A program made the translations under genes and the position numbers. A DNA stretch of 64,000 nucleotides from Stegostoma tigrinum (taxonomy: Eukaryota): the NCBI RefSeq assembly GCF_030684315.1, contig NC_081387.1:1054001-1118000 (forward strand), written 5' to 3'. Below the pieces are notes generated by a model that saw only the letters and a list, made by a program, of their open reading frames with translations, did not search any database and had not been told where the DNA came from. This document shows positions 11,891-55,540 of this stretch, piece by piece (positions within the stretch are counted from its first letter, which is position 1; each line of letters opens with the position of its first letter).

Positions 11891-12465
11891 ACAGTCTCAG
11901 TTGGGAATGGCCAGTACCCTCCCCGCGGAGACCAGTGTTCAACGTCACTGGCTTCTCTCTGCAAGCTCACACTCACTGTCTCTGAAACAGCACCCACCTC
12001 CCACGAAGGCTCACTCCCTTTCACAATCACTATTGCCTGCAAATAAATACCTTCTCTCACTCACCCTCACCAACCCCAACGCCCCCGGGTGTGAGTGAGG
12101 GGCGGTGTGAGCGAGAGAAGGTGTCAGCGAGTAAGGGAGGAAGGATGTTGTGAGGGACGTAGGAGAGCATGAGGCAGCAAGGAGGGAGGGAGGATGAGAG
12201 TGAATGGCGGAAGTAGGGTGTGAGGTAGTTGGGAAGGAGTGAGAGAGAAGGGAGGGTGTGAGGGGTGGTATGAGGGTGTCTGGAGGGTGTGAGGGAGGAG
12301 GGACTGTGTGAGGGATGGTGTGAGGGTGTATGGAGGGTGAGAGGTAGTTGGAACGAAGGACGGAGCATGTTGGGAAGGCTGTGAGTGGGTGGAGAAGAAG
12401 GGTGTGAGTTGGGTGGGAGTGAGGGTGGACAAAGGGTGTGGAGGAGGGTGTAAGGTCGGATGGAG

Positions 12466-12690
12466 GGTGTGAGGGAGGATGGATGGAGTGAGGGAGGATG
12501 GATGGAGTGAGGGAGGATGGATGGAGTGAGGGAGGATGGATGGAGTGAGGGAGGATGGATGGAGTGAGGGAGGATGGATGGAGTGAGGGAGGATGGATGG
12601 AGTGAGGGAGGATGGATGGAGTGAGGGAGGATGGATGGAGTGAGGGAGGATGGATGGAGTGAGGGAGGATGGATGGAGTGAGGGAGGATG
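12466..12690 (+). repeat. 19-bp purine-rich minisatellite within a low-complexity region
   Basis: GGATGGAGTGAGGGAGGAT, about 12 copies. Confidence 0.9.
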
Positions 12691-12829
12691 GAGGGTTTGT
12701 GGGAAGATGGAGGGTTTGTGGGAAGATGGAGGGAGTGAGGGAGGATGGAGGCAGTGAGGGAGGATGGAGGCAGTGAGGGAGGGAGGATGGGGATGGGGAT
12801 TGAGGTACACTAGATGAGGGGGGTATTGG

Positions 12830-13792
12830 GGGGGAAGGAGGTGCACCAGGACAGAGGGCAGTGGTGGGGGAATGAGGTGCAGGTCAGGGGGCAGTGGTGA
12901 GGGAATGAGGTGCACCAGGACAGCGGGCAGTGGGGGGAATGAGGTGCAGCAGGACAGCGGGCAGTGGGGGGGAATGAGGTGCAGCAGGACAGCGGGCAGT
13001 GGGGCGGAATGAGGTGCAGCAGGACAGGGGGCAGTGGGAGGGAATGAGGTGCAGCAGGACAGTGGGGGGAATGAGGTGCAGCAGGTCGGGGGCAGTAGTG
13101 GGGGAATGAGGTGCACCAGGACAGGAGGCAGTGGGCGGGGAATGAGGTGAAGCAGGACAGGGGGCAGTGGGGGGGAATGAGGTGCAGCAGGACAGGGGGC
13201 AGTGGGGGGGAATGAGGTGCAGCAGGACAGGGGGCAGTGGGAGGGAATGAGGTGCACCAGGACAGGGGGCAGTGGGAGGGGGGAATGAGGTGCAGGTCAG
13301 GGGGCAGTGGGAGGGGGGAATGAGGTGCAGCAAGACAGGAGGCAGTTGGGGGGGAATGAGGTGCAGCAGGTCGGGGGCAGTGGGGGGGGGGAATGAGGTG
13401 CAGCAAGACAGGGGGCAGTGGGGGGGGGGGATGAGGTGCAGCAAGACAGGGGGCAGTGGGGGGGGGAATGAGGTGCAGCAAGACAGGGGGCAGTGGGGGG
13501 GGGGGATGAGGTGCAGCAAGACAGGGGGCAGTGGGGGGGGGAATGAGGTGCAGCAGGTCGGGGGCAGTGGGGGGGGGGGATGAGGTGCAGCAAGACAGGG
13601 GGCAGTGGGGGGGGGAATGAGGTGCAGCAAGACAGGGGGCAGTGGGGGGGGGAATGAGGTGCAGCAGGACAGGGGGCAGTGGGGGGGGGGAATGAGGTGC
13701 AGCAAGACAGGGGGCAGTGGGGGGGGGGGGGGGATGAGGTGCAGCAAGACAGGGGGCAGTGGGGGGGGGGGGGATGAGGTGCAGCAAGACAG
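12830..13792 (+). repeat. G-rich minisatellite, about 35-40-bp unit
   Basis: GnAATGAGGTGCAGCAAGACAGGGGGCAGT repeated about 25 times with variable G-tracts. Confidence 0.9.
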
Positions 13793-14046
13793 CGGTCTAT
13801 GGGGCCCTGGACTCACTGTCTCTGTACAATTTCCCCTGCACCACCACCCTCCAGCCCAGTTGTTGTTGTAAAGCGGCCCCCGCCATGTGAGGACCCTCCC
13901 TGAGGGGACAGTGACGCCAGCCCTGAGCCCCTTCCCCACTCACCCCACCTCCCGACACCCTCATTCTCCAGCGCAGACCCTCCTGCAGATCCTCTACGTC
14001 CACAGGGCGGCAGCAGAGACCTTCCCTCTGCTCCCAGACTGGAACC

Positions 14047-14114
14047 AAAACCTGAATTCGCAGACTCCACCCGGCAACAAGTGACGTCAGGCGACAGGTC
14101 TTTATTGTGATTGG
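14047..14114 (+). promoter_or_regulatory. Second S-X-Y-like module with a perfect CRE as X2
   Basis: AAAACCT, 16 bp, CCCGGCAAC-AAG-TGACGTCA, then GTGATTGG; S heptamer and S-X spacing identical to the class I promoter module. Confidence 0.6.
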
Positions 14115-16889
14115 TGGGGAGGTAAGCGGTGAGACTGGCACAGAGAGCCTGCAGGATGTGATTGAAATGGCAGGGATGCAGAGAAGGGTCACCAGGAGGT
14201 TGTGTGGGATAGAGAGACACTGACTCAGCCTGGGTTGTGTTTTTTTAGAGGTGTATCAGATTATGAGGGGGAGAATGGAAAGCAGCAGTACCCCTTGGTT
14301 GAAGGGAGGGACGTTTTTAAAGGGAGTGGCTGAGGTTTAGAGAGGATTGACTGAAGAAAATTATTTTGGACATTGTGTGTCAGGATGGATATTGGCTGCT
14401 CACATTGTGTGTGTGAAAGAGCTACAGGGGAAGTGCTGAATGTGCCTCGAAATATATCTCTCCTGCTTTAAAAAAGAGGGAGAGTGAGTGTGGATTGAGG
14501 CTGGGGGTGGAGGTGGTGAGGTGTGGTGGGTGGGGTGCAGTGGGTGGGGGTGGGGAGGGGGTTGTGATGTGGGTTTGATGCAGCCGGTAGGGGTGGTGCA
14601 GTGGGTGGGGGTGGTGTGGGGAGGGGGTTGTAGTGTGGCGGGTGGGGTGTGGTGGGTGGGGGTGGTGTGGAGTTGTGGGGTAGTGGGGTGTGGAGTGGAG
14701 GGTGGGGGTGCAGCGGGTGGGGGTGGTGTGGGTGGGGGTGATGCGGGGTAGTGGGGTGCAGTGGGTCGGGGTGATGCGGGGTAGTGGGGGTGGTGTGGTG
14801 GGTGTCAGGGGGAGGGGCAGAAATAAACAGAGGCCGAGGAGAGAGAAAAACATTTACTGAGGCCACATCTGGAGGTCGCTGTGCAGTTCCAGAATCTGGA
14901 ATGTGAGAAGGAAAAAGCAAGCAAGGAAAAAGGAAAGAAAATTCTAAAGCGTAGAAGTAAGGATAGAGACTGTGGTTATGGCACAGGGGAGAATGTTTAA
15001 GAGAAGAGCGGGAGAAAAAGTTACCACAACTTACATTTATATAGCACCTTTCGCACAGACAAACCTCCAAATACATGGGAGAGTTATCAAACAAAGTTCG
15101 ACATTGAGCTGACAGAGCAATCCCTCAAACACCTAACTCAGAGGTGAGGGTGGAATTTGAATTCTAATTTTTAAAATGTCTCAGTTTAAGACTGTAAGGA
15201 TGATCATGAAACCACTGCTACTCGTTGGAAAACCCATTTGGTTCATTAATGTCCTTTAGGGAATGAAACTGCCATCCTTACCCGGTCTGGGTTACACGTG
15301 ACTCCAGACCCACAGCAATGTGATTGACTCTGAGCTGCCCTCTGAGACAATAAATACTGGCCCAGCCAGCAACACCCACATTCTGAGAATGTACTTTTTT
15401 GCTAACAGGCACAAAAGTAAAATGTCAGGTGGAGAATGATTTCCTTTTTGAATGGAGAGAAAGTTGGAGTCCAGAGAGATTTGAAGACAAGGCACAGACA
15501 GTAAATTGTCACTTAGTGTTCTGCAGAACGGGGGTAAATTAATGCTGCTGCAATTATACAGGGCTTTGCTGGGACCAGGTCTCTGTTTAGCTCTGACATT
15601 GCCCTATCAATTTTACACTGAATGGTGGTTACACAGAAGGCTCACTCAAGTTCTCCCTGGAATTAAGGGTTGGCCCTATGATGGCAGGCAGAATAATTTA
15701 GGCTAAAGTTCTCCAAAGTTTAGCAGAGTCAGAAGCAATTTCGTTCGAACATCGGGGATTGTGGGAACACCACCACCTCCAAGTTCCCCTCCAAGTCACT
15801 CACCATCCTGACTTGGAAATATATCGCCGTTCCTCCACTGTCACTGGGTCAAAATCCTAGATTTCCCTCCCTAAGGGCATTGTTTTACAACCCATAGCAG
15901 GAGGACTGCAGCTGTTCAAGAAGGCAGCACACCACCACCTTCTCAAGGGGGCAACTAGGGATGGACAATATAGGCTGGCCAACCAGCAACACCCACATCC
16001 CACAAATGAATTTAAAAAAAACTTGACAGAGTGGACAGCCTGTACCCCCCAGGCTGGGCAATCTATAACATAGGGTACAGCCTTGGGATGAAGGCCTAAT
16101 CATTTAGAACTGCCCTGAGGAGGAATTACCTCACTGAATGGGCCATGGGTTTTGTGAAATCTCAAACCCACCCCCACCCCCAGCAATGTGGAATGCCTGT
16201 CGCTGAACATAGTGAACGCTGTGATCAGACAGTCAGTTCTGTGCACCCTGCCTCAGGTTGGATGTATGGGCCTTAGAATGAGAGCACTGCAGTTTAACTA
16301 GAATATCCTTAGAAGGGTGAAATACCGAGGGCAGGTTACACATTGTAATCCCTTGTGATGCCCAAACAATGGGAAGGGCTCTTGGGGTAGGGTGGCAGTA
16401 TTCCTGCCTCTGAGCCAGGAGGTCTGACTCCAATCCCATCTGCTCCTAGGATGTGTGATAGCACTGATGAACAGGTTGAGTGGATTGAGGTGTTTAAAAT
16501 GATGAATGGAATTGACTGGGTCAATGCAGAAAGACTAATGCCTCTGGTGGGGGAGGCAGCACACAACAAGGCAACAAAACCTTGTCAGGCCATTCAGTGG
16601 GATATCAGAAAACAAGTCTTCAGAAAGACGGATTGGGAACACTGTACCCCATCCCCACAAGAGGGTTACCAATACTGAAGCCAGTGCAAATTCCTAAACG
16701 GAGATGGTGCTGTTTTTATTATTATCAGGGAAGTAGATGAACAGCCAAACTGGTGATTCAAATGAAGTTAGGTTACAGTTCTGTAAGAAGCAGTTAGAAT
16801 GATGCAACACACTATAGGGGCTGAATGGCTTCCTGTTCTTCCCATTCTCTACATCTCTCCTTTTGGATTTCTCTCTTTGACTCCTGAGC

Positions 16890-18080
16890 CTCTATCAGCT
16901 TCCCAATTCCTCTGCCTCCGTTGCATCTGCTATGACGAGGAGACGTTCCACACCCGAGCATCCTGGGTGTCTGTGATAATGGGAACTACAGATGCTGGAG
17001 AATCCAAGATAACAAAGTGTGAAGCTGGATGAACACAGCAGGCCAAGCAGCATATCAGGATGAAGGGTCTAGGCCCGAAACGTCAGCTTTTGTGCTCCTG
17101 AGATGCTGCTTGGCCTGCTGTGTTCATCCAGCTTCACACTTTGTCATCCTGGGTGTCTGCCTTGTTCAGACAACGCTCATCCAGACAACCCTCCACTGTA
17201 CCTCCTACATTCCCCACTCCACATCTCTTATCCACCACCCTGCCCAAACATAGTAATGATAGAGCCCCCCCTTGTCCTCACTTCCCACGCCACCACCCTC
17301 TGCATCCAATGTATCATCCTCAAACACATCTGCCGACACTAATTAGACCCCACCACCCTAAACATCTTCCACTGCCCACCGTTCTCTGCCTTCTGCAAGG
17401 ACCATTGCCTTCATCACTGCTTAGTTCGCGCCACACTCCCCACCAACCGGTCCGGTACCTTCCCCTGTAACTGTAAAAAATGCAACCCCTCCCACACACC
17501 ACCTCCCTCACCTCGTTCAGAGTTCTAAATGGCCCTTCCAAGTGAGACTGACCTTCACCTGCATCTCCTCCAACTTGGTTTATTGAATCCGGTGCTCCCG
17601 ATGCGGTATTCTCTATGTCGGTGAGACTAAACACGGACTCGGTGACTGTTTGGCCGAGCACCTCCTCCTGCCCCTTAATGACCAACCTAACGTCCCGGTC
17701 ACTGTCCATTTCAGCTCCCCGTCCCACTCCGGCATATCCATCCTCGGTATCCTCCAGGGTCGCAACGATTCGGAACACAACGTTGAAGAACAACACCTTA
17801 TCTTCCGCTTGGGCACCCTACAGCGTGGAGGACTAACACTGAGTTCTCCAATTATAAATAACCTTCCCACCCATTTCCCTGTCTCCCTTCCAGCGACCAA
17901 CCAGATTCATCCTTCCCATTAACCAACCACCAATGTCCCACCTATCACCACCATGTCACTTCCCCCCTCCTTTATCTGCAGCTCCCCCGACCCCCATTTC
18001 CAATCCTGAATGAGGGTAATGCCCAAATGTGACTGCTTCCTTGCTCCAGATGCTGCCTGGCCTGCTGTGTTCTCCCAGCT
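16890..18080 (+). mobile_element. Older Penelope-like element, interrupted twice; its tail resumes at 20787-20822
   Basis: SQFLCLRCIC...; LYVGET; EQHLIFRLGTLQ; degenerate tail. Confidence 0.8.
16974..17144. mobile_element. 171-bp fold-back insertion made only of two opposed Penelope tails
   Basis: 15-bp TSD CATCCTGGGTGTCTG at 16959-16973 and 17145-17159. Confidence 0.88.
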
Positions 18081-18177
18081 GATACTGGGAACTGCAGATG
18101 CTGGAGAATCCAAGATAATAAAGTGTGAAGCTGGATGAACACAGCAGGCCCAGCAGCATCTCAGGAGCACAAAAGCT

Positions 18178-18205
18178 GACGTTTCGGGCCTAGGCCCTTC
18201 ATCAG
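18178..18205 (-). ncRNA. Minimal hammerhead ribozyme motif in a PLE tail
   Basis: CTGATGA-A-GGGCCTAGGCCC-GAAAC-GTC on the minus strand. Confidence 0.6.
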
Positions 18206-20678
18206 ACAGGGGGATGGGGTGAGGGTTCTGGAATAAATAGGGAGAGAGGGGGAGGTGGACCGAAGATGGAGAGAAAAGAAGATAGGTGGAGAGGAGAGTA
18301 TAGGTGGGGAGGTAGGGAAGGGATAGGTCAGTCCAGGGAAGACGGACAGGTCAAGGTGGTGGGATGAGGTTAGTAGGTAGGAGATAGAGGTGCGGCTTGG
18401 GATGGGAGGAAGGGATGGGTGAGAGGAAGAACAGGTTAGGGAGGCTGAGACAGGCTGGACTGGTTTTGGGATGCAGTGGGTGGAGGGGAAGAGCTGGGCT
18501 GGTTTTGGGATGTGGTGGGGGAAGGGGAGATTTTGAAGCTGGTGAAGTCCACATTGATACCATCGGGCTGCAGGGTTCCCAAGCGGAATATGAGTTGCTG
18601 TTCCTGCAACCTTCGGGTGGCATCATTGTGGCACTGCAGGAGGCCCATGATGGACATGTCATCTAAAGAATGGGAGGGGCAGTGGAAATGGTTTGTGACT
18701 GGGAGGTGCAGTTGTTTGTTGCGAACCGAGCGGAGGTGTTCTGCAAAGCGGTCCCCAAGCCTCCGCTTGGTTTCCCCAATGTAGAGGAAGCCACACCGGG
18801 TACAATGGATGCAGTATACCACATTGGCAGATGTGCGGGTGAACCTCTGCTTAATATGGAAAGTCATCTTGGGGCCTGGGATGGGGGTGAGGGAGGAGGT
18901 GTGGGGGCAAGTGTAGCATTTCCTGCGGTTGCAGGGGAAGGTGCCGGGTGTGGTGGGGTTGGAGGGCAGTGTGGAGCGAACAAGGGAGTCACGGAGAGAG
19001 TGGTCTCTCCGGAAAGCAGACAGGGGTGGGGATGGAAAAATGTCTTGGGTGGTGGGGTCGGATTGTAGATGGCGGAAGTGTCGGAGGATGATGCGTTGTA
19101 TCCGTAGGTTGGTAGGGTGGTGTGTGAGAATGAGGGGGATCCTCTTTGTTGCAGTTGTGGCGGGGACGGGGTGTGAGGGATGTGTTGCGGGAAATGCGGG
19201 AGACACGGTCTTCCTCTTCCGCACCTACACAGGCCCCAAACCCCACCTCTTCCTCCGTTACATTGATGACTGTATCGGTGCCGCCTCTTGCTCCCCAGAG
19301 GAGCTCGAACAGTTCATCCACTTCACCAACACCTTCCACCCCAACCTTCAGTTCACCTGGGCCATCTCCAGCACATCCCTCACCTTCCTGGACCTCTCAG
19401 TCTCCATCTCAGGCAACCAGCTTGTAACTGATGTCCATTTCAAGCCCACCGACTCCCACAGCTACCTAGAATACACCTCCTCCCACCCACCCTCCTGCAA
19501 AAATTCCATCCCATATTTCCAATTCCTCCGCCTCCGCCACATCTGCTCCCATGATGAGGCATTCCACTTCCGCACATCCCAGATGCCCAAGTTCTTCAAG
19601 GACCGCAACTTTCCCCCCACAGTGGTCGAGAACGCCCTTGACCGCGTCTCCTGCATTTCCCACAACACATCCCTCACACCCCGCCCCCGCCACAACCGCC
19701 CAAAGAGGATCCCCCTCATTCTCACACACCACCCCACCAACCTCCGGATACAACGCATCATCCTCCGACGCTTCCGCCATCTACAATCCGACCCCACCAC
19801 CCAAGACATTTTTCCATCCCACCCCTGTCTGCTTTCCGGAGAGACCACTCTCTCCGTGACTCCCTTGTTCGCTCCACACTGCCCTCCAACCCCACACCTG
19901 GCACCTTCCCCTGCAACCGCAGGAAATGCTACACTTGCCCCCACACCTCCTCCCTCACCCCCATCCCAGGCTCCAAAGATGACTTTCCATATTAAGCAGA
20001 GGTTCACCTGCACATCTGCCAATGTGGTATACTGCATCCATTGTACCCGGTGTGGCTTCCTCTACATTGGGGAAACCAAGCAGAGGCTTGGGGACCGCTT
20101 TGCAGAATACCTCCGCTCGGTTCGCAATAAACAACTGCATCTCCCAGTCGCAAACCATTTCCACTCCCCCTCCCATTCTTTAGATGACATGTCCATCATG
20201 GGCCTCCTACAGTGCCACAATGATGCCACCCGAAGGTTGCAGGAACAGCAACTCATATTCCGCTTGGGAACCCTGCAGCCCAATGGTATCAATGTGGACT
20301 TCACCAGCTTCAAAACCTCCCCTTCCCCCACCGCATCCCAAAACCAGCCCAGTTTGTCCCTCCCCCCACTGCACCACACAACCAGCCCAGCTCTTCCCCT
20401 CCACCCACTGCATCCCAAAATCAGTCCAACCTGTCTCTGCCTCCCTAACCTGTTCTTCCTCTCACCCATCCCTTCCTCCCACCCCAAGCCGCACCTCCAT
20501 CTCCTACCTACTAACCTCATCCCACCTCCTTGACCTGTCCATCTTCCCTGGACTGACCTATCCCCTCCCAACCTCCCCACCTATACTCTCCTCTCCACCT
20601 ATCTTCTTTTTTCTCCATCTTCAATCTGCCTCCCCCTCTCTCCCTATTTATTCCAGTTCCCTCTCCCCATCCCCCTCT

Positions 20679-20706
20679 CTGATGAAGGGTCTAGGCCCGA
20701 AACGTC
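20679..20706 (+). ncRNA. Minimal hammerhead ribozyme motif in a PLE tail
   Basis: CTGATGA-A-GGGTCTAGGCCC-GAAAC-GTC. Confidence 0.6.
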
Positions 20707-20934
20707 AGCTTTTGTGCTCCTGAGATGCTGCTGGGCCTGCTGTGTTCATCCGGCCTCACATTGTATCATCTTGTGTTCTCCCAGCTTCCTGTTTGTCTGC
20801 CTTGGATTCCAGCATCTGCAGGTTTTTTTTTGTCTCTAAGTCCTTCACTGATCTCTGTCTCTGTTTCACTCTGCCGTCTCTTTGCATCCCACTCATTTAG
20901 CTCCTTGTACAGGAAACCCGCTGACTCTAGATTT

Positions 20935-20998
20935 GAAACATCACTCACATATTCTGCCTGGTAACAGCGAGGTAATGCTGACTCCAGCTACTGATTGG
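20935..20998 (+). promoter_or_regulatory. Third S-X-Y-like module
   Basis: GAAACAT, 15 bp, CCTGGTAACAG, then CTGATTGG; GTAAC-to-ATTGG offset 33 bp; ETS-like ACTTCCGG about 35 bp downstream. Confidence 0.6.
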
Positions 20999-21570
20999 TG
21001 CAAATCACACCTTGCTATTGAACCACAATGGAAACTTCCGGTCACTGGTTTGCCCAAATATTCTTCTATATATTTCTAGCCTTTCCTTCAAGTCATATTA
21101 TAAGCAGGGGCATGACTCTCTCTGTTCACAGTTCCTCACATTGAAATTGTAGTATTTAATCTGTACGATCACCGCTCGGTCTTCCCCGTAAAATTTAGCT
21201 CAGTATACTTTTCTGTAATGAATTTCATTTGCTGTGCGTTTACTGAGCCACCTTCAGTAATCCTTTTGTAGTCTGTTCCTCACCGCTACAACGTTTCCAA
21301 GTGCTATCTTGACAGTATGCCCTGAACCTCTAAGTTCAAGTTATTGATGTACATTGAAAACAGCGGCGGTCTCAGTGCGAAATCATAGACAACTCCCTCT
21401 GTTCAGTCAAACTGTATGAAATAAAATGAAAAGCATCTCTGTTCGACACATTTTTTCTGACACTTCCTGATTTCCGCATAAAATCGAAAATCGTTCCGAG
21501 AGCTGGCTGTTTTGCTTTCATACAAGTGCCAGGGAATGACCATCTCCAACAAGAGGGGAATAAAAACCAC

Positions 21571-23670
21571 AAGAATGTAGATGCTGTAAGTCTGAAACAA
21601 AACAGAAATTGCTGAAAAAGCTCAGAAGGTCTGGCAGCATCTGTGAGGAGAAAATCAGAGTTAATGTTTCGGGCTCACTGACCCTTCCTCAGTAACTGAT
21701 GGTGGCTCGGAAAACGTTGGTTTATATGCAGAAAATAGGGAGGGGGATGGAGTAGGGAATGAACGATAGGATAGAGCCTGAAGAGAGAGAAGAGCAAGGT
21801 GTGAAGCTGGAGGAACACAGCAGGCCAGGCAGCATCAGAGGAGCAGGAAAACATTTTTGAAGAAGGATCCAGAGCCAAAACATCAGCATTCCTGCTCTTC
21901 TGATGCTGCCTGGCCTGCTGTGTTCCCCCAGCTCCACATTGTGTCATCTCAGACTCCAGCATCAGCAGTTCCCACTATCTCAGAGAGAAGAGCGGTAGGA
22001 CAAAGGAGTTGCTGACGATCAGGCTGGGACGGTGAATAGTTGTTATTGGGGACTGTTCGTGACTAATAACAGGGGGTGTGTAGTGGCGGGCTACGTGGTA
22101 ACAAGGCCCGGTGTGTGGGGTAGGGGGCTGGGACATGGCAGAGTTTAGGCCTTAAAATTATTGAACTCAATATTGACTCTGGAGGGCTGTAGGGTCCCCA
22201 AACGGAAAATGATGTGTTGTTCCTCCAGCTTGCACTGGGCTTCACTGGAACACTGTAGCAAGCCGGAGACAGAGATGTTGGCCAGGGAGCAGGGTGGTGC
22301 ATTGAAGTGGCAGGCAACGGGTAGTTCAGGGTCTTTATTGTGAGCAGAATATAGAAGTTCTGTGATGCCATTGCTAAGTCTACGCTTAGTTTCTCCAACG
22401 CAGAGGAGACCACACTGTGAGCAGCGAATGCAGTAGACGAGGTTCTGGGACTGTGCAGGTGAAGTGTTGCTTCACCTGGAAGGAATGTTTGTATCTTTGG
22501 ATAGTGGGGAGGGAGGAGGTAAATGGGCAGGTGTTGCACCTTCGCCGGTTACAGGGGAATGTGCCGTTGGTCTGTGGGGAGGTGTTGGGGATGAAGGAAG
22601 TGTGGACCAGAGTGCCCCGTGGGGAATGGTCCCTGCAGAAGGTAGACAGGGGAGGGGAGGGGAGGGGAGGGAATATGTGTGTGGTGGTGGCACCTTGCTG
22701 GAGGTGACAGAAATGGCGTCTGATGATCTTCAGGACGTGGATGCTGGTGGGATGGTGGGTGAAGATAAGGGGAACCCTATTGCTGTTGCGGCGGGGTGGG
22801 GAAGAGGAGGGGTGAGATCGGAAGTGCAGGAGATGGGTTGGACCTGGTTGAGGGCCCTGTCAACAACGGAGCTAGCGAATCCTTGATTGAGAAAGAAGGT
22901 GAACATTTCAGAGGCTTCCTTGTCAAAGTTGGCCTCAAATGAACATATGTGACGGAGACGGAGGAATGAGAGAATGGGATGGAGGAAGCAGGGTGTGAGG
23001 ATGTATAGTCCAGATAGCTGCAGGAGTCGGTGGGTTTGTAACGGATATTAGAGGCCAGTCTATCCCCAAAAATGGAAACAGAAATGTCGAGCAAGGGAAG
23101 GGAAGGGAGGAGTCAGAGATAGACGAGGTGAACGTGAGGGCAGGTTGGAAATTGGAGGCGAACTTGATGTAGTTTTTAAATTCCGGATGAGAGAGAGAAG
23201 CAACACCAATGATATCATTGATATATCAGAGGAAGAGTTGTGAGTGGGGGCCAGAATTGGATTGGAACAAGGAATGTTCCATGTACCCCACAAAGAGACA
23301 GGCATAACCAGGGCCCATGTGGCTATCCAGCCATCCCTCTGAACTGAAGAAGATGACAGGAGTTAAAAGAGAAGCTGTTGAGGGTGAGGACGAACTTGGC
23401 CAAGTGGAGGAGGGTAGTGGTTCAGGTCTTTGCTCAAAGAAGGAACAGAGAGCCCTAAGACCTATCATTTACTCCTGATCCCTTACCCTGACCCTATCTT
23501 CTGCATAGAAGTCAACATTTCCCTAGCTACCATCCATTCTGAGGAAGGGTCACCAGACCAATAACGTTAACTCTGATCTCTCTCCACAGATCCTGCCAGA
23601 CCTGCTGAGATTTTCCAGTAATTTCTGGTTTTGTTCCTGATTTCCAGCATCTGCAGTTTAACCAGTTTTT
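21571..23670 (-). mobile_element. Penelope-like element of a second family, with tails in opposite orientation at both ends
   Basis: MGPGYACLFVGYME, LDISVSI..YKPTDSCSYLDY relics; related tails at 21577-21700 (-) and 23530-23656 (+); possible short TSD AAAACCA. Confidence 0.82.
21796..21981. mobile_element. 186-bp fold-back Penelope tail insertion nested in another PLE
   Basis: 12-bp TSD AGAGAGAAGAGC at 21784-21795 and 21982-21993. Confidence 0.8.
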
Positions 23671-24084
23671 TTTTAAAACCAGGCTGCTGCCCTGGGCTGA
23701 GAAGCAGGCTGCTCTGTCCGAAAGGGAGATTGCTCCGGTTCGAGTTCCGAATGCTGCACACCTCCATCAGCTCCAGCTCCAGCTCCGAAAGTGCAACCAA
23801 AAGAAATTGCAAATCCGAAACAACGCCATCACAACGGATCACACCAGGATAGGGTTCACACCGGGTTACAACAGATTACACCATAACAATGGACTGGATT
23901 GAGTCAGAGCACACCATGACAAAAGGTGTGACACTGGATCAAAGTGGAACAGGAGATCATACCAGATTACATCAGGACAGAGGATGTTACTGGAATAACA
24001 GCATCATATCATTCATTTTCACAATGCAAAATTGGGGGTCACACCAAGAAAGGGGGATCAAATTGAGATGGGAGACTGAGGGGC

Positions 24085-24610
24085 TCAGATTGGGATTGGA
24101 CGGAATGAGGGGATCAGATTGGATTGGGGGGGAATGAGGCGATCAGATTGGATTGGGGGGGGATGAGGCGATCAGATTGGATTGGGGGGGGATGAGGCGA
24201 TCAGATTGGATTGGGGGGGGGAAATGAGGCAATCAGATTGGATTGGGGGGGGAAATGAGGCAATCAGATTGGATTGGGGGGGGAAATGAGGCAATCAGAT
24301 TGGATTGGGGGGGAATGAGGCGATCAGATTGGATTGGGGGGGAAATGAGGTGATCAGATTGGATTGGGGGGGAAATGAGGCGATCAGATTGGATTGGGGG
24401 GGGAATGAGGCGATCAGATTGGATTGGGGGGGATGAGGGAAACAGATTAGATTAGATTGGATTGGATTGGATTGGATTGGATTGGATTGGATTGGGGGGA
24501 ATGAGGGAAACGGATTGGATTGAATTGGGGGGAATGAGGGAAACAGATTGGATTGGATCGGATTAGATCAGATCAGATCGAATGAGGGAAAGAGATTGGA
24601 TTGGGGGGGA
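24085..24610 (+). repeat. About 31-bp minisatellite grading into (GATTG)n
   Basis: GAGGCGATCAGATTGGATTGGnAAT repeats. Confidence 0.9.
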
Positions 24611-28638: not shown

Positions 28639-28671
28639 TTTTTGCTGGATTGTAGCCAGTCTTCTGGCCTG
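28639..28671 (-). CDS. UAA: MHC class I exon 6 (cytoplasmic, AGQKTGYNPAK)
   Basis: 33 bp, phase 1-1, TACAG acceptor and GTAAGT donor; contains the class I YxxA motif. Confidence 0.88.
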
Positions 28672-35593: not shown

Positions 35594-38500
35594 AGTCCGT
35601 CCGTCCGTCCCCATCACCGCTCCCCCGTCCCGGCCCGGCCCGTCCGTCCGTCCGTCCCCATCACCGCTCCCCCGTCCCGGCCCGGCCCGTCCGTCCGTCC
35701 GTCCCCATCACCGCTCCCCCGTCCCGGCCCGGCCCGTCCGTCCGTCCGTCCCCGTCACCGCTCCCCCGTCCCGGCCCGGCCCGTCCGTCCGTCCCCGTCA
35801 CCGCTCCCCCGTCCCGGCCCGGCCCGTCCGTCCGTCCCCGTCACCGCTCCCCCGTCCCGGCCCGGCCCGTCCGTCCGTCCCCGGCCCGGCCCGTCCGTCC
35901 CCGTCACCGCTCCCCCGTCCCGTCCCGGCCTGTCCGTCCGTCCGTCCGTCCCCATCACCGCTCCCCCGTCCCGTCCCGGCCTGTCCGTCCGTCCGTCCCC
36001 GTCACTGCTCCCCCGGCCCGTCCGTCCGTCCCCGTCACCGCTCCCCCGTCCCGGCCCGGCCCATCCGTCCGTCACCGTCACCGCTCCCCCGGCCCGGCCT
36101 GGCCCGTCCGTCCGTCCCCGTCACCGCTCCCCCTTCCCGGCCTGGCCTAGCCCGGCCCGTCCGTCCGTCCCCGTCACCGCTCCCCCGGCCCGGCCCGGCC
36201 CGTCCGTCCGTCCCCGTCACCGCTCCCCCGTCCCGGCCCGGCCTGGCCCGTCCGTCCGTCCCCGTCACCGCTCCCCCGTCCTGGCCCGGCCCGGCCCGTC
36301 CGTCCGTCCCCGTCACCGCTCCCCCGTCCCGTCCCGGCCCGGCCTGGCCCGTCCGTCCGTCCCCGTCACCGCTCCCCCGTCCCGGCCCGGCCTGGCCCGT
36401 CCGTCCGTCCCCGTCACCGCTCCCCCGTCCCGGCCCGGCCTGTCCGTCCGTCCCCCTCACCGCTCCCCCGGCCCGGCCCGTCCGTCCGTCCCCGTCACCG
36501 CTCCCCCGTCCCATCCCGGCCCGTCCGTCCACCTCACCACTCCCCCGGCCCGGCCCGGCCCGTCCGTCCGTCCCCGTCACCGCTCCCCCGTCCCGGCCCG
36601 GCCCGTCCTTCCGTCCCCGTCCCGGCCCGGCCCGTCCGTCCCCTTCACCGCTCCCCCGTCCCGGCCTGTCCGTCCGTCCGTCCCCGTCACCGCTCCCCCG
36701 GCCCGTCCGTCCGTCCCCGTCACCGCTCCCCCGTCCCGGCCCGGCCCATCCGTCCGTCCGTCCCCGTCACCGCTCCCCCGTCCCGGCCCGGCCCGTCCGT
36801 CCGTCCCCGTCACCGCTCCCCCGTCCCGGCCCGGCCCGTCCGTCCGTCCCCGTCACCGCTCCCCCGTCCCGGCCCGGCCCGTCCGTCCGTCCCCGTCACC
36901 GCTCCCCCGGCCCGGCCCGGCCCGTCCGTCCGTCCCCGTCACCGCTCCCCCGTCCCGGCCCGGCCCGTCCTTCCGTCCCCGTCCCGGCCCGGCCCGTCCG
37001 TCCCCTTCACCGCTCCCCCGTCCCGGCCCGGCCCATCCGTCCGTCCCCCTCACCGCTCCCCCGGCCCGGCCCGGCCCGTCCGTCCGTCCCCGTCACCGCT
37101 CCCCCGTCCCGGCCCGGCCCGTCCTTCCGTCCCCAACACCGCTCCCCCGTCCCGGCCCGGCCCATCCGTCCGTCACCGTCACCGCTCCCCCGTCCCGGCC
37201 CGGCCCATCCGTCCGTCACCGTCACCGCTCCCCCGTCCCGGCCCATCCGTCCGTCACCGTCACCGCTCCCCCGTCCCGGCCCATCCGTCCGTCACCGTCA
37301 CCGCTCCCCCGTCCCGGCCCGGCCCGTACGTCCGTCCCCATCACCGCTCCCCCGTCCCGGCCCGGCCTGGCCCGTCCGTCCGTCCCCCTCACCGCTCCCC
37401 CGTCCCGTCCGTCCCCGTCACCGCTCCCCCGTCCCGTCCCGGCCCGGCCCGGCCCATCCTTCCGTCCCCGTCACCGCTCCCCCTTCCCGGCCTGGCCCGG
37501 CCCGTCCGTCCGTCCCCGTCACCGCTCCCCCGTCCCATCCCGGCCCGTCCGTCCGTCCCCGTCACCGCTCCCCCGTCCCATCCCGGCCCGTCCGTCCCCG
37601 TCACCGCTCCCCCGTCCCGGCCTGTCCGTCCGTCCGTCCCCGTCACTGCTCCCCCGGCCCGTCCGTCCGTCCCCGTCACCGCTCCCCCTTCCCGGCCTGG
37701 CCCGGCCCGGCCCATCCGTCCGTCCCCCTCACCGCTCCCCCGTCCCATCCCGGCCCGTCCGTCCGTCCCCGTCACCGCTCCCCCGTCCCGTCCCGGCCCG
37801 GCCCGGCCCGGCCCATCCGTCCGTCCCCCTCACCGCTCCCCCGTCCCATCCCGGCCCGTCCGTCCCCGTCACCGCTCCCCCTTCCCGGCCTAGCCCGGCC
37901 TGGCCCGTCCGTCCGTCCCCGGCACCGCTCCCCCGTCCCGGCCAGGCCCATCCGTCCGTCCCCGTCACCGCTCCCCCTTCCCGGCCCGGCCCATCCGTCC
38001 GTCCCCCTCACCGCTCCCCCGTCCCATCCCGGCCCGTCCGTCCGTCCCCGTCACCGCTCCCCCGTCCCATCCCGGCCCGTCCGTCCCCGTCACCGCTCCC
38101 CCGTCCCGTGCCGGCCCGTCCGTCCGTCCCCGTCACCGCTCCCCCGTCCCGTCCCATCCCGGCCCGTCCGTCCGTCCCCGTCACCGCTCCCCCTTCCCGG
38201 CCCGTCCGTCCGTCCCCGTCACCGCTCCCCCTTCCCGGCCCGGCCCATCCGTCCGTCCCCCTCACCGCTCCCCCGTCCCATCCCGGCCCGTCCGTCCGTC
38301 CCCGTCACCGCTCCCCCGTCCCATCCCGGCCCGTCCGTCCCCGTCACCGCTCCCCCGTCCCGTGCCGGCCCGTCCGTCCGTCCCCGTCACCGCTCCCCCG
38401 TCCCATCCCGGCCCGTCCGTCCCCGTCACCGCTCCCCCGTCCCGTGCCGGCCCGTCCGTCCGTCCCCGTCACCGCTCCCCCTTCCCGGCCCGTCCGTCCG

Positions 38501-41500
38501 TCCCCGTCACCGCTCCCCCTTCCCGGCCTGGCCCAGCCCGGCCCGTCCGTCCGTCCCCGTCACCGCTCCCCCGTCCCGGCCCGGCCCATCCGTCCGTCCC
38601 CGTCACCGCTCCCCCGTCCCGGCCCGGCCCGGCCCGTCCGTCCGTCCCCGTCACCGCTCCCCCGTCCCGGCCCGTCCGTCCGTCCCCGTCACCGCTCCCC
38701 CGTCCCGGCCCGGCCCGGCCCGTCCGTCCGTCCCCGTCACCGCTCCCCCGTCCCGGCCCGTCCGTCCGTCCCCGTCACCGCTCCCCCGTCCCGGCCCGGC
38801 CCGGCCCGTCCGTCCGTCCCCGTCACCGCTCCCCCGTCCCGGCCCGGCCCGTCCGTCCGTCCGTCCCCGTCACCGCTCCCCCGTCCCGGCCCGGCCCGTC
38901 CGTCCGTCCCCGTCACCGCTCCCCCGTCCCGGCCCGGCCCGGTCCGTCCGTCCGTCCCCGTCACCGCTCCCCCGTCCCGGCCCGTCCGTCCGTCCCCGGC
39001 ACCGCTCCCCCGTCCCGGCCCGGCCCGTCCGTCCGTCCCCGTAACCGCTCCCCCGTCCCGGCCCGTCCCGGCCCGTCCGTCCGTCCCCGTCACCGCTCCC
39101 CCTTCCCGGCCCGTCCGTCCGTCCCCGTCACCGCTCCCCCTTCCCGGCCTGGCCCAGCCCGGCCCGTCCGTCCGTCCCCGTCACCGCTCCCCCGTCCCGG
39201 CCCGGCCCATCCGTCCGTCCCCGTCACCGCTCCCCCGTCCCGGCCCGGCCCGGCCCGTCCGTCCGTCCCCGTCACCGCTCCCCCGTCCCGGCCCGTCCGT
39301 CCGTCCCCGTCACCGCTCCCCCGTCCCGGCCCGTCCGTCCGTCCCCGTCACCGCTCCCCCGTCCCGGCCCGTCCGTCCGTCCCCGTCACCGCTCCCCCGT
39401 CCCGGCCCGTCCGTCCGTCCCCGTCACCGCTCCCCCGTCCCGGCCCGGCCTGGCCCGTCCGTCCGTCCCCGTCACCGCTCCCCCGTCCCGGCCCGGCCTG
39501 GCCCGTCCGTCCGTCCCCATCACCGCTCCCCCTTCCCGGCCCGGCCTGGCCCGTCCGTCCGTCCCCGTCACCGCTCCCCCTTCCCGGCCTGGCCCGGCCC
39601 GGCCCATCCGTCCGTCCCCGTCATCGCTCCCCCGTCCCATCCCGGCCCGTCCGTCCCCGTCACCGCTCCCCCGTCCCATCCCGGCCCATCCGTCCGTCCC
39701 CGTCACCTCTCCCCCGTCCCATCCCGGCCTGGCCCGTCCGTCCGTCCCCGTCACCGCTCCCCCGTCCCGGCCCGTCCGTCCGTCCCCGTCCCCGCTCCCC
39801 CATCCCGGCCCGGCCTGGCCCGTCCGTCCCCGTCACCGCTCCCCGTCCCATCCCGGCCCGTCCGTCCCCGTCACCGCTCCCCCGTCCCATCCCGTCCGTC
39901 CGTCCCCGTCACCGCTCCCCCTTCCCGGCCTGGCCCGGCCTGGCCCGTCCGTCCGTCCCCGTCACCGCTCCCCCGTCCCGTCCCGGCCCGTCCGTCCGTC
40001 CCCGTCACCGCTCCCCCGTCCCGGCCCGTCCGTCCGTCCCCGTCACCGCTCCCCCGTCCCGGCCCGGCCCGGCCCGTCCGTCCGTCCCCGTCACCGCTCC
40101 CCCGTCCCGGCCCGTCCGTCCGTCCCCGTCACCGCTCCCCCGTCCCGGCCCGTCCGTCCGTCCCCGTCACCGCTCCCCCGTCCCGGCCCGGCCCGGCCCG
40201 TCCGTCCGTCCCCGTCACCGCTCCCCCGTCCCGGCCCGTCCGTCCGTCCCCGTCACCGCTCCCCCGTCCCGGCCCGGCCCGGCCGTCCGTCCCCGTCACC
40301 GCTCCCCCGTCCCGGCCCGTCCGTCCGTCCCCGTCACCGCTCCCCCGTCCCATCCCGGCCCGTCCGTCCCCGTCACCGCTCCTCCGTCCCGGCCCGGCCT
40401 GGCCCGTCCCCGTCACCGCTCCCCCGTCCCGGCCCGGCCCGGCCCGTCCGTCCGTCCCCGTCACCGCTCCCCCGGCCCGGCCCGTCCGTCCGTCCCCGTC
40501 ACCGCTCCCCCGTCCCGGCCCGGCCTGGCCCGTCCCCGTCACCGCTCCCCCGTCCCGGCCCGGCCCGGCCCGTCCGTCCGTCCCCGTCACCGCTCCCCCG
40601 TCCTGGCCCGGCCCGGCCCGTCCGTCCGTCCGTCCGTCCCCAACACCGCTCCCCCGTCCCGGCCCGGCCCGTCCGTCCGTCCCCCTCACCGCTCCCCAGG
40701 CCCGGCCCGTCCGTCCGTCCCCGTCACCGCTCCCCCGTCCCATCCCGGCCCGTCCGTCCCCGTCACCGCTCCTCCGTCCCGGCCCGGCCTGGCCCGTCCC
40801 CGTCACCGCTCCCCCGTCCCGGCCCGGCCTGGCCCGTCCGTCCGTCCCCGTCACCGCTCCCCCGTCCCATCCCGGCCCGTCCGTCCCCGTCACCGCTCCT
40901 CCGTCCCGGCCCGGCCTGGCCCGTCCGTCCGTCCCCGTCACCGCTCCCCCGTCCCGGCCCGTCCGTCCGTCCCCGTCACCGCTCCCCCGTCCCGGCCCGT
41001 CCGTCCGTCCCCGTCACCGCTCCCCCGTCCCGGCCCGTCCGTCCGTCCCCGTCACCGCTCCCCCGTCCCGGCCCGGCCTGGCCCGTCCCCGTCACCGCTC
41101 CCCCGTCCCGGCCCGGCCCGGCCCGTCCGTCCGTCCCCGTCACCGCTCCCCCGGCCCGGCCCGGCCCGTCCGTCCGTCCCCGTCACCGCTCCCCCGTCCC
41201 GGACCGGCCTGGCCCGTCCCCGTCACCGCTCCCCCTTCCCGGCCCGGCCCGTCCGTCCGTCCCCGTCACCGCTCCCCCTTCCCGGCCCGGCCCGTCCGTC
41301 CGTCCCCGTCACCGCTCCCCCTTCCCGGCCCGGCCCGTCCGTCCGTCCCCGTCACCGCTCCCCCTTCCCGGCCCGGCCCGTCCGTCCGTCCCCATCACCG
41401 CTCCCCCGTCCCGGCCCGGCCTGGCCCATCCGTCCGTCCCCGTCACCGCTCCCCCGTCCCATCCCGGCCCGTCCGTCCCCGTCACCGCTCCCCCTTCCCG

Positions 41501-44290
41501 GCCTGGCCCGGCCTGGCCCGTCCGTCTGTCCCCGTCACCGCTCCCCAGGCCGGGCCCGTCCGTCCGTCCCCGTCACCGCTCCCCCGTCCCGGCCCGTCCG
41601 TCCGTCCCCGTCACCGCTCCCCCGTCCCAGCCCGTCCGTCCGTCCCCAACACCACTCCCCCGGCCGGAACCGTCCGTCCGTCGCCGTCACCGCTCCCCCG
41701 TCCCGGCCCGGCCCGGCCCGTCCGTCCGTCGCCCTCACCGCTCCCCCGTCCCGGCCCGGCCTGGCCCGGCCCGTCCCCGTCACCGCTCCCCCGTCCCGGC
41801 CCGGCCTGGCCCGTCCGTCCGTCCCCGTCACCGCTCCCCCGTCCTGGCCCGGCCCGGCCCGTCCGTCCGTCCGTCCGTCCCCAACACCGCTCCCCCGTCC
41901 CGGCCCGGCCCATCCGTCCGTCCCCGTCACCACTCCCCCTTCCCGGCCCGGCCTGGCCCATCCGTCCGTCCCCGTCACCGCTCCCCCGTCCCGGCCCGGC
42001 CTGGCCCGTCCGTCCGTCCCCGTCACCGCTCCCCCGTCCTGGCCCGGCCCGGCCCGTCCGTCCGTCCGTCCGTCCCCAACACCGCTCCCCCGTCCCGGCC
42101 CGGCCCATCCGTCCGTCCCCGTCACCACTCCCCCTTCCCGGCCCGGCCTGGCCCATCCGTCCGTCCCCGTCACCGCTCCCCCGTCCCATCCCGGCCTGTC
42201 CGTCCGTCCCCGTCACCGCTCCCCCGTCCCATCCCGGCCCGTCCGTCCCCGTCACCGCTCCCCCGTCCCATCCCGGCCCGTCCGTCCCCGTCACCGCTCC
42301 CCCTTCCCGGCCTGGCCCGTCCGTCCGTCCCCGTCACCGCTCCCCCTTCCCGGCCTGGCCCGGCCTGGCCCGTCCGTCCGTCCCCGTCACCGCTCCCCCG
42401 TCCCGGCCCGTCCGTCCGTCCCCGTCACCGCTCCCCCGTCCCGGCCCGTCCGTCCGTCCCCGTCACCGCTCCCCCGTCCCGTCCCGTCCCGGCCCGTCCG
42501 TCCGTCCCCGTCACCGCTCCCCCGTCCCAGCCCGTCCGTCCGTCCCCAACACCGCTCCCCCGTCCCGGCCCGGCCTGGCCCGTCCCCGTCACCGCTCCCC
42601 CGTCCCGGCCCGGCCCATCCGTCCGTCACCGTCACCGCTCCCCCGTCCCGTCCCGGCCCGTCCGTCCGTCCCCCTCACCGCTCCCCCGTCCCGGCCCGTC
42701 CGTCCGTCCCCGTCACCGCTCCCCCGTCCCGGCCAGGCCCGTCCGTCCGTCCCCGTCACCGCTCCCCCGTCCCGGCCCGGCCTGGCCCGTCCCCGTCACC
42801 GCTCCCCCGTCCCGGCCCGGCCTGGCCCGTCCGTCCGTCCCCGTCACCGCTCCCCCGTCCTGGCCCGGCCCGGCCCGTCCGTCCGTCCGTCCGTCCCCAA
42901 CACCGCTCCCCCGTCCCGGCCCGGCCCATCCGTCCGTCACCGTCACCGCTCCCCCGTCCCGGCCCGGCCCGTCCGTCCGTCCCCCTCACCGCTCCCCCGG
43001 CCCGGCCCGTCCGTCCGTCCCCGTCACCGCTCCCCCGTCCCGGCCCGGCCCGGCCCGGCCCGTCCGTCCGTCCCCGTCACCGCTCCCCCGTCCCGGCCCG
43101 TCCGTCCGTCCCCGTCACCGCTCCCCCGTCCCGGCCCGGCCCGGCCCGTCCGTCCGTCCCCGTCACCGCTCCCCCGTCCCGGCCCGGCCCGGCCCGTCCG
43201 TCCGTCCCCGTCACCGCTCCCCCGTCCCGGCCCGGCCCGGCCCGTCCGTCCGTCCCCGTCACCGCTCCCCCGGCCCGGCCCGGCCCGTCCGTCCGATCCC
43301 GTCACCGCTCCCCCGTCCTGGCCCGGCCCGGCCCGTCCGTCCGTCCGTCCGTCCCCAACACAGCTCCCCCGTCCCGGCCCGGCCCGTCCGTCCGTCCCCG
43401 TCACCGCTCCCCCGTCCCGGCCCGGCCTGGCCCGTCCGTCCGTCCCCGTCACCGCTCCCCCGTCCCGGCCTGGCCCGGCCCGTCCGTCCGTCCCCGTCAC
43501 CGCTCCCCCGTCCCATCCCGGCCCGTCCGTCCCCGTCACCGCTCCTCCGTCCCGGCCCGGCCTGGCCCGTCCGTCCGTCCCCGTCACCGCTCCCCCGTCC
43601 CGGCCTGGCCCGGCCCGTCCGTCCGTCCCCGTCACCGCTCCCCCGTCCCATCCCGGCCCGTCCGTCCCCGTCACCGCTCCTCCGTCCCGGCCCGGCCTGG
43701 CCCGTCCGTCCGTCCCCGTCACCGCTCCCCCGTCCTGGCCCGGCCCGGCCCGTCCGTCCGTCCGTCCGTCCCCAACACCGCTCCCCCGGCCCGGCCCGGC
43801 CCATCCGTCCGTCACCGTCACCGCTCCCCCGTCCCGGCCAGGCCCGTCCGTCCGTCCCCGTCACCGCTCCCCCGTCCCGGCCCGTCCGTCCGTCCCCGTC
43901 ACCGCTCCCCCGTCCCGGCCCGGCCCGGCCCGTCCGTCCGTCCCCGTCACCGCTCCCCCGTCCCGGCCCGGCCCGGCCCGTCCGTCCGTCCCCGTCACTG
44001 CTCCCCCGTCCCGGCCCGTCCGTCCGTCCCCGTCACCGCTCCCCCGTCCCGGCCCGGCCCGGCCCGTCCGTCCGTCCCCGTCACTGCTCTCCCGTCCCGG
44101 CCCGTCCGTCCGTCCCCGTCACCGCTCCCCCGTCCCATCCCGGCCCGTCCGTCCCCGTCACCGCTCCTCCGTCCCGTCCCGGCCCTGCCTGGCCCGTCCC
44201 CGTCACCGCTCCCCCGTCCCGGCCCGGCCTGGCCCGTCCCCGTCACCGCTCCCCCGTCCCGGCCCGGCCTGGCCCGTCCGTCCGTCCCCC
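35594..44290 (+). repeat. 8.7-kb GC-rich modular satellite filling MHC intron 3
   Basis: Core CCCCGTCACCGCTCCCCC joined to variable numbers of (GGCCC) and (GTCC) modules; extreme C/G strand skew. Confidence 0.97.
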
Positions 44291-44351
44291 TCTCTGCTCC
44301 CCCTGTCCCCGCTGTCCCCCACACAGTGTCCCCCCCCTGTCTCACACTGAC

Positions 44352-44646: not shown

Positions 44647-44778
44647 GCCAATCACAGGGAGGGATCGCACGGGGCGGCCAATCACAGGGAGGGATCGCAC
44701 GGGGCGGCCAATGACAGGGAGGGATCGCACGAGGCGGCCAATGACAGGGAGGGATCGCACGGGGGCGGCCAATGACAG
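44647..44778 (+). repeat. 30-bp tandem repeat (about 4.4 copies) in MHC intron 2
   Basis: GCCAAT(C/G)ACAGGGAGGGATCGCACGGGGCG. Confidence 0.93.
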
Positions 44779-51600: not shown

Positions 51601-52110
51601 AATAAATCCTAAAACACAGAGACCGCTGTAAATAAACCCTAAAACACAGAGCCCCTGGTAAATAATCCCTAAAGCACACAGAGCCTCCTGTAAATAAACA
51701 CTAAATCACAGAGGCCCCTGTAAATAACCTGAAAACGCAGAGCCTCCTGTAAATAATCCCTAAAACACACAAGGCCCACTATAAATAATCCTTCAAACAC
51801 ACACAACCCCCTGTAAATAAACCCTAAAACACACAGAACACCCTGTAAATAATCCCGGAAACACACATAGCCCCCTGTAAATAATCCCTAAAACACACAG
51901 AACACCCTGCAACTAGACCATCAAACAGAGCCCCTGTAAATAATCTCTAAAACAGAGCCCCCTGTAAATAAATCCTAAAACACAGAGGGCCCTCTACATA
52001 AATCCTAAAACACAGAGCCCCGGTAAATAAATCCTAAAACATAGAGCCTCCTGTAAATAAACCCTAAAACACAGAGGGCCCTGTAAATAAACCCTAAAAC
52101 AGAGAGAGCC
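45683..52110 (+). repeat. 6.4-kb 32-bp satellite (about 200 copies) in MHC intron 1
   Basis: Unit AGAGCCCCCTGTAAATAATCCCTAAATCACAC with recurring variants; degenerates toward 52.1 kb. Confidence 0.97.
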
Positions 52111-55091: not shown

Positions 55092-55140
55092 CTGCAGATG
55101 CCCCTCCACACAGGAGGCCGAGTAGTATAAGTCTGAACAT
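55092..55140 (-). CDS. UAA: MHC class I heavy chain exon 1 (signal peptide MFRLILLGLLCGGASA)
   Basis: ATG at 55140; 16 hydrophobic codons ending A-S-A; phase-1 donor G|GTGGGT at 55091; joins in frame to GG TCT CAC (GSH) of alpha1; lies about 310 bp downstream of an S-X-Y module. Confidence 0.9.
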
Positions 55141-55319: not shown

Positions 55320-55351
55320 CTGATTGGACACTGCTTACACACTGAGCCAAT
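55320..55351. promoter_or_regulatory. Two proximal CCAAT boxes in opposite orientations
   Basis: CTGATTGG at 55320-55327 and CCAAT at 55347-55351 on the + strand, between the SXY module and the ATG. Confidence 0.55.
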
Positions 55352-55449
55352 GAGAATAGGAACAGTATATGAGTTGGCAGTTTCTGGGTAGAACATTACT
55401 GGACAGGTTGAGTCGTCTCCAAATAAATTAGAAAATTACAGTGAACCAC

Positions 55450-55540
55450 CCAATCAGAGAGATACTGTAAAGACACACCATCGGTTACCAGGGAGAATAA
55501 ACTGCAGCAGGTTTTCAGAATCAAAGGAGAAAGTGAAAGT
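55450..55540 (-). promoter_or_regulatory. MHC class I promoter: ISRE + S-X-Y module
   Basis: Sense strand reads ACTTTCACTTTCTC (ISRE, 55540-55527), AAAACCT (S, 55515-55509), 16-bp spacer, CCTGGTAACCGATG (X1/RFX, 55492-55479), CTGATTGG (Y/NF-Y, 55457-55450); order and spacing match mammalian MHC SXY modules. Confidence 0.85.

Follow-up and report, generated by a model that had tools for sequence, protein, structure and literature searches.

A candidate distal S-X-Y enhancer among four modules around a shark MHC class I gene

Four S-X-Y modules surround a single MHC class I gene in the 64,000-nucleotide stretch of shark DNA analysed here (the window), and it is this layout that is directly shown and new. 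The parts of the SXY system are known; their arrangement around a shark class I gene is unexpected. The module at 14047-14114, which is an SXY (W/S-X1-X2-Y) module by its sequence, is read here, at about even odds (roughly 0.5), as a distal class Ia-region enhancer on which RFX, CREB/ATF and NF-Y would assemble and which would recruit NLRC5 or CIITA and act at a distance. Judged by their sequences, this module and a second one at 20936-20998, also on the 3' side of the gene, are likely long-range enhancers. No study of shark SXY modules or shark MHC promoters was found in the literature searched, which covered few subscription papers and hence does not show absence from print.

The S-X-Y module at 14047-14114

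All boxes lie on the plus strand, where an earlier note on this DNA had placed them:

14047-14054, plus strand: S box, identical in 8 of 8 bases to the S box in the distal module of the class I promoter
14070-14078, plus strand: X1 box, a predicted RFX site, 15 nt past S
between X1 and X2, plus strand: AAG
14082-14089, plus strand: X2 box, a perfect CRE palindrome
14107-14114, plus strand: Y box (inverted CCAAT), 17 nt after the CRE

The module spans 68 bp, and the order and orientation of S, X1, X2 and Y, together with this length, fit an SXY module (~59-68 bp, a size range given in the accessible part of PMC4243378). Its X2 is the best among the four modules of the window and one of two perfect CREs there. 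The S box also carries AACCT, which we take to be the core of the mammalian NLRC5-type S box.

The earlier note had compared this module with that of the class I promoter. The module used for this comparison is the more distal of two at that promoter (55515-55450, minus strand). Besides the S box, 7 of 9 bases of X1 and 7 of 8 of Y are identical between the two, giving 22 of 25 box bases in common, whereas the S-X spacers (4/15 identical) and the 177 nt upstream (34/177) are unrelated, as had been claimed for the spacers. Equal S-X spacing was likewise borne out, but with the box limits given in the note it measures 15 nt in either module, and to reach the 16 bp reported before, one base of a box has to be assigned to the spacer. 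Similarly, the 2-nt difference in X-Y offset stands while the figures do not: from X1 start to Y start the distance is 37 here and 35 at the promoter, in place of 36 and 34. Measured from X1 start to ATTGG, it is 40 nt against 37-38 in the other three modules; if X is assumed to be 20 nt long, the gap from X to ATTGG is 20 against 18, 17 and 17. The orientation is indeed opposite to that of the gene's own module. Further, the distance of 41 kb holds (41,026 bp to the class I ATG), but the module faces the gene from past its 3' end, 12.2 kb from the likely polyadenylation signal.

The class I gene

The class I gene is the only gene recognised in the window:

26327-55140, minus strand: MHC class I gene of the UAA lineage
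from the ATG at 55140, minus strand: leader
~45085-44826, minus strand: alpha1 exon, one base short in a G run
44624-44352, minus strand: alpha2 exon
35010-34747, minus strand: alpha3 exon
29571-29470, minus strand: transmembrane exon
near 28670 and 28370, minus strand: two tail exons
26332-26327, minus strand: likely polyadenylation signal

Alpha1 and alpha2 match the Pfam family MHC_I and alpha3 matches C1-set. The closest relatives of alpha2 are shark class I proteins (68-72%), and alpha3 is 80-83% identical to three class I proteins of bamboo and epaulette sharks, which are carpet sharks. The exon translations contain the peptide-anchoring residues Y7, Y59, R84, T143, K146, W147, Y159 and Y171 as well as a UAA-type tail. 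By its sequence the gene is thus of the UAA lineage, either as the classical locus or as an Ia-like copy, and probably that of a carpet shark, and the shark class I context proposed in the earlier note is confirmed by the Pfam matches, the relatives and the anchoring residues. In the G run of alpha1 (~44885, minus strand) the missing base shifts the frame for the last ~20 codons and is probably an assembly error. Introns of 9-10 kb occur in the gene.

Four modules around one class I gene

A matrix scan with the module at 55515-55450 as template found four modules in the window. By position of X1, they score 32.8 bits (55492, minus strand, the template), 32.5 (14070, plus), 25.8 (20957, plus) and 22.3 (55388, minus), and all four exceed the maxima of 200 Markov controls (top control 21.8 bits); the next site, one-base shifts set aside, scores 11.9. 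The score of 32.5 is somewhat generous because two degeneracies allowed in X1 also fit the 14047 module. The module is therefore not an orphan, as it had been called, but has three companions in the window, which are listed here with their surroundings:

55450-55515, minus strand: distal promoter module, with a weak X2
55347-55411, minus strand: proximal promoter module (S 55411-55404, 15-nt spacer, X1 55388-55380, Y 55354-55347)
55327-55323, minus strand: forward CCAAT, 19 nt past the Y box of the proximal promoter module
55529-55538: ISRE, just upstream of the distal promoter module
20936-20998, plus strand: second 3' module (degenerate S 20936-20942, X1 20957-20965, Y 20991-20998)
21001-21500: CpG-retaining stretch with two ETS sites, a kB-like site and IRF-like and TATA-like motifs

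The two promoter modules stand in tandem, 104 bp or about ten helical turns apart, with 38 of 104 bases in common. The two 3' modules lie ~5 kb (20936-20998) and ~12 kb (14047-14114) past the end of the gene and point alike, opposite to the promoter pair. The S-X gap is 15 nt in three of the four modules and 14 nt in the one with the degenerate S box, whose X1 (9/9) and Y (8/8) are nevertheless identical to those of the distal promoter module. Next to it, the CpG ratio (observed/expected) of 0.93 at 21101-21500 ranks second among 416 windows of 400 bp. The ETS, kB-like and IRF-like motifs of this stretch were called from consensus sequences and are weak evidence. From its sequence, 20936-21500 is a stronger promoter candidate than the 14047 module, at which no ISRE, ETS site or CpG island was found.

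Outside the boxes the modules have little in common. In pairwise comparisons among the four, 4-8 of 15 spacer bases and 0-5 of 12 bases in the X2-Y gap are alike. The non-repeat flanks, upstream and downstream, align no better than controls, 87, 326 and 403 of 500 controls scoring as high. One similarity upstream of the promoter and 20957 modules (score 42) proved to come from the 3' end of a repeat that matches 15 times in the window, and it disappears when this is removed. Shared boxes amid unrelated spacers and flanks point to selection on the boxes, and they argue that the modules are neither recent duplicates nor evenly decaying relics. The view of the earlier note that selection on the boxes is at work rather than recent duplication is hence supported.

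Chance matches, copy number and assembly

The number of matches expected by chance to a pattern of exact S, 15 nt, X1 (at most 2 mismatches) and Y (at most 1 mismatch) is 1.0e-5 per window under an order-3 Markov model of the non-tandem part of the window. The matrix score of the 14047 module was reached by none of the 200 Markov controls. The full pattern in relaxed form has three matches in the window, which are three of the four modules, a count that none of 100 shuffles reached; in an entire collection of viral contigs the relaxed pattern matched 2 stretches. A search for orthologues in metagenome contigs gave 0 matches and 1 match. The stretches L001-L003 lack similarity to the window, L003 is dense in open reading frames (ORFs), and they are put down to chance.

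The stretch 13806-14141 is covered by a single contig with zero differences from the window in each of four DNA contig sets, all of which come from one sample that is possibly the source of the window itself. A second copy at 80% identity was found in none of these four sets, and no self-match of the module was found within the window. The module is thus single-copy at 80% identity and not part of a young mobile family, and both observations speak against a transposon-borne motif. In the contigs of the same sample, one base is omitted at 14240 (4/4 runs) and T is replaced by G at 14352 (3/4); these differences are either small assembly errors or another haplotype.

Flanks of the module and the search for a gene to promote

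The surroundings of the module contain the following:

13806-14046: GC-rich single-copy flank on the S side, ~240 bp
14005-14010: GC box in this flank
13943 and 13816, minus strand: donor-like sites in this flank
14152-14214 and ~14249-14306, plus strand: scraps of a multi-copy repeat that begin 38 bp past the Y box, presumably a CR1-type LINE

The space available to a plus-strand gene served by the module is that between 14.1 and 26.3 kb. There appears to be nothing to promote in this direction, given the repeats 38 bp past Y, the lack of any CCAAT or TATA within 200 nt past the Y box and the lack of any ORF that passes Pfam. The latter was judged on 315 ORFs of at least 28 aa in unique sequence of 1-27.2 kb, of which 261 were scanned; none passed the curated cut-off, whereas the class I exons did pass, and the sole interpretable match was a reverse-transcriptase scrap. 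The scan left out ORFs below 28 aa and the remaining 54 of the 315, mostly derived from repeats or from the class I 3' untranslated region, which counts against the enhancer reading; an exon of fewer than 28 codons may lie here, as may a non-coding first exon. A search of 150 ORFs against NCBIfam, a library that presumably includes a TAP model, gave 3 weak matches far below cut-off. No coding exon was recognised in 1-26 kb, and Rfam had 0 matches on 1-35500. A tblastn search with 21 class I proteins found no class I pseudogene relic left of 26 kb (best E 0.099).

On the S side, the flank has a CpG ratio of ~0.4 and no TATA was found in it. The stretch 13806-14084 is partly open in two minus-strand frames and one plus-strand frame, and a 222-nt stretch is open on the minus strand between acceptor-like and donor-like sites. 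The three-base GC periodicity at 13806-14045 is weak, 99 of 5000 shuffles and 105 of 1345 window stretches scoring as high. Word searches of the frames near the module returned 55 and 98 candidates, all of them with E above 1, and the short ATG frames at 13964 and 13886 had no homologue. A full HMMER scan gave 2 matches (P0001 and P0002), which were rejected as bacterial-type repeat proteins at ~30% by summed repeats. As no homologue of the adjoining frames was found by word search, HMMER, Pfam, NCBIfam or Atlas, coding-exon readings of 13806-14084 were rejected.

Enhancer, promoter or relic

By analogy with mammals, RFX would bind X1 of the 14047 module, CREB/ATF would bind X2 and NF-Y would bind Y, and this assembly would open chromatin and serve as a platform for NLRC5 or CIITA. 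The module would then act, by looping, on the class I promoter, on the next antigen-processing gene or on both. Action at a distance is suggested by the lack of a start site in the direction in which the module points. The enhancer reading is favoured because the matches lie far beyond chance, because the locus collects several modules (four), as the human class II region does, and because the S-X gap of 15 nt equals that of NLRC5-type S boxes in the part of PMC7753138 available. Several points count against it, among them the longer distance to ATTGG and the lack of an ISRE, ETS site or CpG island at the module. In the available text of PMC4374748, the NLRC5-bound modules of the mouse are all promoter-proximal, and in that of PMC7573153 the enhanceosome may not drive interferon induction in salmon cells. 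Further, the order UAA then TAP2 in the white shark makes a neighbour's non-coding first exon plausible, which would be invisible to ORF scans. The interpretation given in the earlier note is partly supported: its proposal of an enhancer system is strengthened by two additional modules, and of its two readings a distal enhancer is somewhat more probable than the promoter of a neighbour.

The main rival reading, which we consider somewhat unlikely, makes the module the reversed promoter module of a leftward, minus-strand neighbour; TAP2, starting with a short exon that is non-coding, is the best candidate for this neighbour. The flank 13806-14046 would then be the candidate for this exon, which would run ~14040-13944 or to 13817 and be followed by a first intron of more than 13.8 kb, and the 20957 module would be an upstream enhancer or an alternative promoter. 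According to the excerpts of PMC10751288, white shark UAA is followed by TAP2 on the same strand 31 kb away (TAP2, spanning 119 kb, starts there after a partial annotated UAA), and in the catshark TAP2 is preceded on its own strand, at a distance of 347 kb, by a partial class Ia gene; however, in the same source gene order varies among elasmobranchs. The 240 bp of GC-rich single-copy DNA, with their GC box and pair of donor-like sites, also fit such an exon, although donor-like sites occur by chance at 1.8 per kb per strand, and introns of 9-10 kb have a parallel in the class I gene of the window. As regards direction, Tap1 and Psmb9 of the mouse, which are read from opposite strands, have one common NLRC5 peak (PMC4374748, in part), so that one of the two is driven against the direction of the module. 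However, the accessible part of that paper gives 11 mouse genes with an SXY match in the promoter, and Tap2 is not one of them. Moreover, the 13.8 kb left of the module yielded no recognisable coding exon, and the module lacks a CpG island. TAP1, PSMB8 and PSMB9 have coding first exons, and these genes, as well as a leader exon, are argued against by the missing homologues of the ATG frames at 13964 and 13886.

It is improbable that the module once served as promoter of a class I or processing gene that has since been deleted, or that it drives a non-coding RNA towards the 3' end of the class I gene, other genes being hardly affected or not at all. Class I regions of elasmobranchs gain and lose genes, with extra class Ia-like genes occurring (PMC10751288, in the part available), both 3' modules point alike, the 20957 module combines a decayed S box with promoter-like CpG and TATA-like features, and a drift of 2-3 nt is seen in the X-Y gap of the 14047 module. 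Nevertheless, no similarity to the class I gene in leader, exon or flank was seen; nor would neutral decay leave 22 of 25 box bases matching next to spacers at chance level. It is very improbable that the boxes are a by-product, whether of chance or of the edge of a coding exon. The weak three-base periodicity and the 222-nt open stretch would suit a coding edge, but no homologue came from word search, HMMER, Pfam or Atlas, and the chance expectation of 1e-5 tells against coincidence. The distal enhancer remains the best reading, at the even odds given at the outset.

Comparison with known SXY systems

In the mouse, RFX mediates the recruitment of NLRC5 to SXY modules whose S box is distinct and which, by the convention of PMC4374748, have an S-X spacing of 16 and an X-Y spacing of 20-22 (available part of the paper). 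PMC7753138, likewise in excerpt, places the NLRC5-type S box 15 bp upstream of X and ATTGG usually 17-18 bp from X, and notes that position and orientation of Y matter; the accessible text of a review (PMC7922096) holds X-Y spacing to be more relaxed for NLRC5. The NLRC5-type modules of mammalian class I genes, B2m and Tap1-Psmb9 described in these excerpts (PMC4374748, PMC7753138) resemble the 14047 module in the order S-X1-X2-Y, the 15-nt S-X gap and the inverted CCAAT of the Y box, and they too are situated in the class I region. However, the mouse modules lie upstream of the start site, with none intergenic in the MHC in the excerpted data, whereas the 14047 module lies on the 3' side of the class I gene, 41 kb away from its start. 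Its X-Y gap is also 2-3 nt longer than usual for mammalian modules, and the shark class I promoter, unlike mammalian NLRC5-type promoters, has two modules in tandem.

The human class II region contains distal CIITA/RFX5/CREB/NF-Y modules, one of them 50.9 kb from HLA-DQA2 (PMC4243378; the distal modules also in PMC1904273; both in part). Like the shark locus, it has several complete modules, with boxes conserved and flanks not; some of its modules lie tens of kb from any start site, as the 14047 module may. In contrast to the shark modules, which surround a class I gene, the class II modules recruit CIITA among class II genes, and binding and enhancer activity have been shown for them, whereas both are predictions for the 14047 module, which, unlike them, bears the S box of a class I promoter. 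Since no gene other than the class I gene was recognised in the window, the module is not counted as a member of the class II S'-Y' family, though it may work in the same way. The accessible text of PMC2278383 reports S-Y modules at the promoters of a few CIITA targets outside the MHC (RAB4B, TRIM26, ZNF672 and others), which together with BTN3A (PMC7753138, in part) illustrate that modules can serve neighbours or unrelated genes, and that in some of them Y is displaced or the S box is unclear, as the latter is at 20957. However, these sit at annotated start sites, and no gene start was found at 14047. SXY motifs also occur in teleost and opossum class I promoters (PMC7573153, PMC1351924, PMC7281430, PMC6523485; in the parts available). 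In teleosts the same motif family (W/S, X2, Y) is accompanied by an ISRE, but the excerpt of PMC7573153 describes promoter motifs only and mentions no distal modules comparable with the 3' modules found here. According to the available part of PMC10751288, elasmobranch class Ia genes are linked to TAP1, TAP2, PSMB8 and PSMB9.

Among mammals, a multi-module distal layout is known from class II and not from class I genes. The distal S'-Y' modules of mammalian class II are inverted, and their original description is reportedly that of Krawczyk (2004). A bolder and rather doubtful proposal is that shark class Ia is governed by a multi-module SXY system of the locus-control type, in which a tandem promoter pair and reversed distal modules couple class I to linked TAP and PSMB genes through NLRC5. 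If true, both MHC classes would have started out with long-range SXY control, which mammalian class II retained and mammalian class I lost on parting from the processing genes. Should the 3' modules prove to be enhancers, they would represent intergenic class I elements of a sort that ChIP of mouse NLRC5 did not find, and would offer short targets for the co-regulation of class I and tightly linked TAP and PSMB genes in an ancestral MHC. Should the 14047 module be the promoter of TAP2, the result would be a smaller one, a shark processing gene under SXY control. At the least, the 15-nt S-X grammar of mammalian class I control, and probably its S box, recur several times in a shark class I locus.

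Repeats in the window

Repeats are found both within the class I gene and around the modules. Intron 1 contains a minisatellite of ~202 copies of a 32-nt unit (45683-52111) and intron 3 one of ~198 copies of a 43-48 nt unit with 81% GC (35597-44309), so that the two arrays flank the polymorphic alpha1 and alpha2 exons. Intron 2 has 4.4 copies of a 30-nt unit (44647-44778), each with a CCAAT/ATTGG-type box. Another tandem array (24053-24558), made of 29-30 nt units with many CCAAT/ATTGG pentamers, lies 1.8 kb past the 3' end of the gene. Directly left of the unique flank of the 14047 module, a G-rich tandem array of 35-37 nt units (12819-13805) forms with 12458-12790 a strand-skewed repeat of 1.3 kb. 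Long LINE-like copies occupy 386-2400, 18036-20782 and 21985-23250, with frames partly open in both orientations, and it is the 3' end of this family that matches 15 times in the window.
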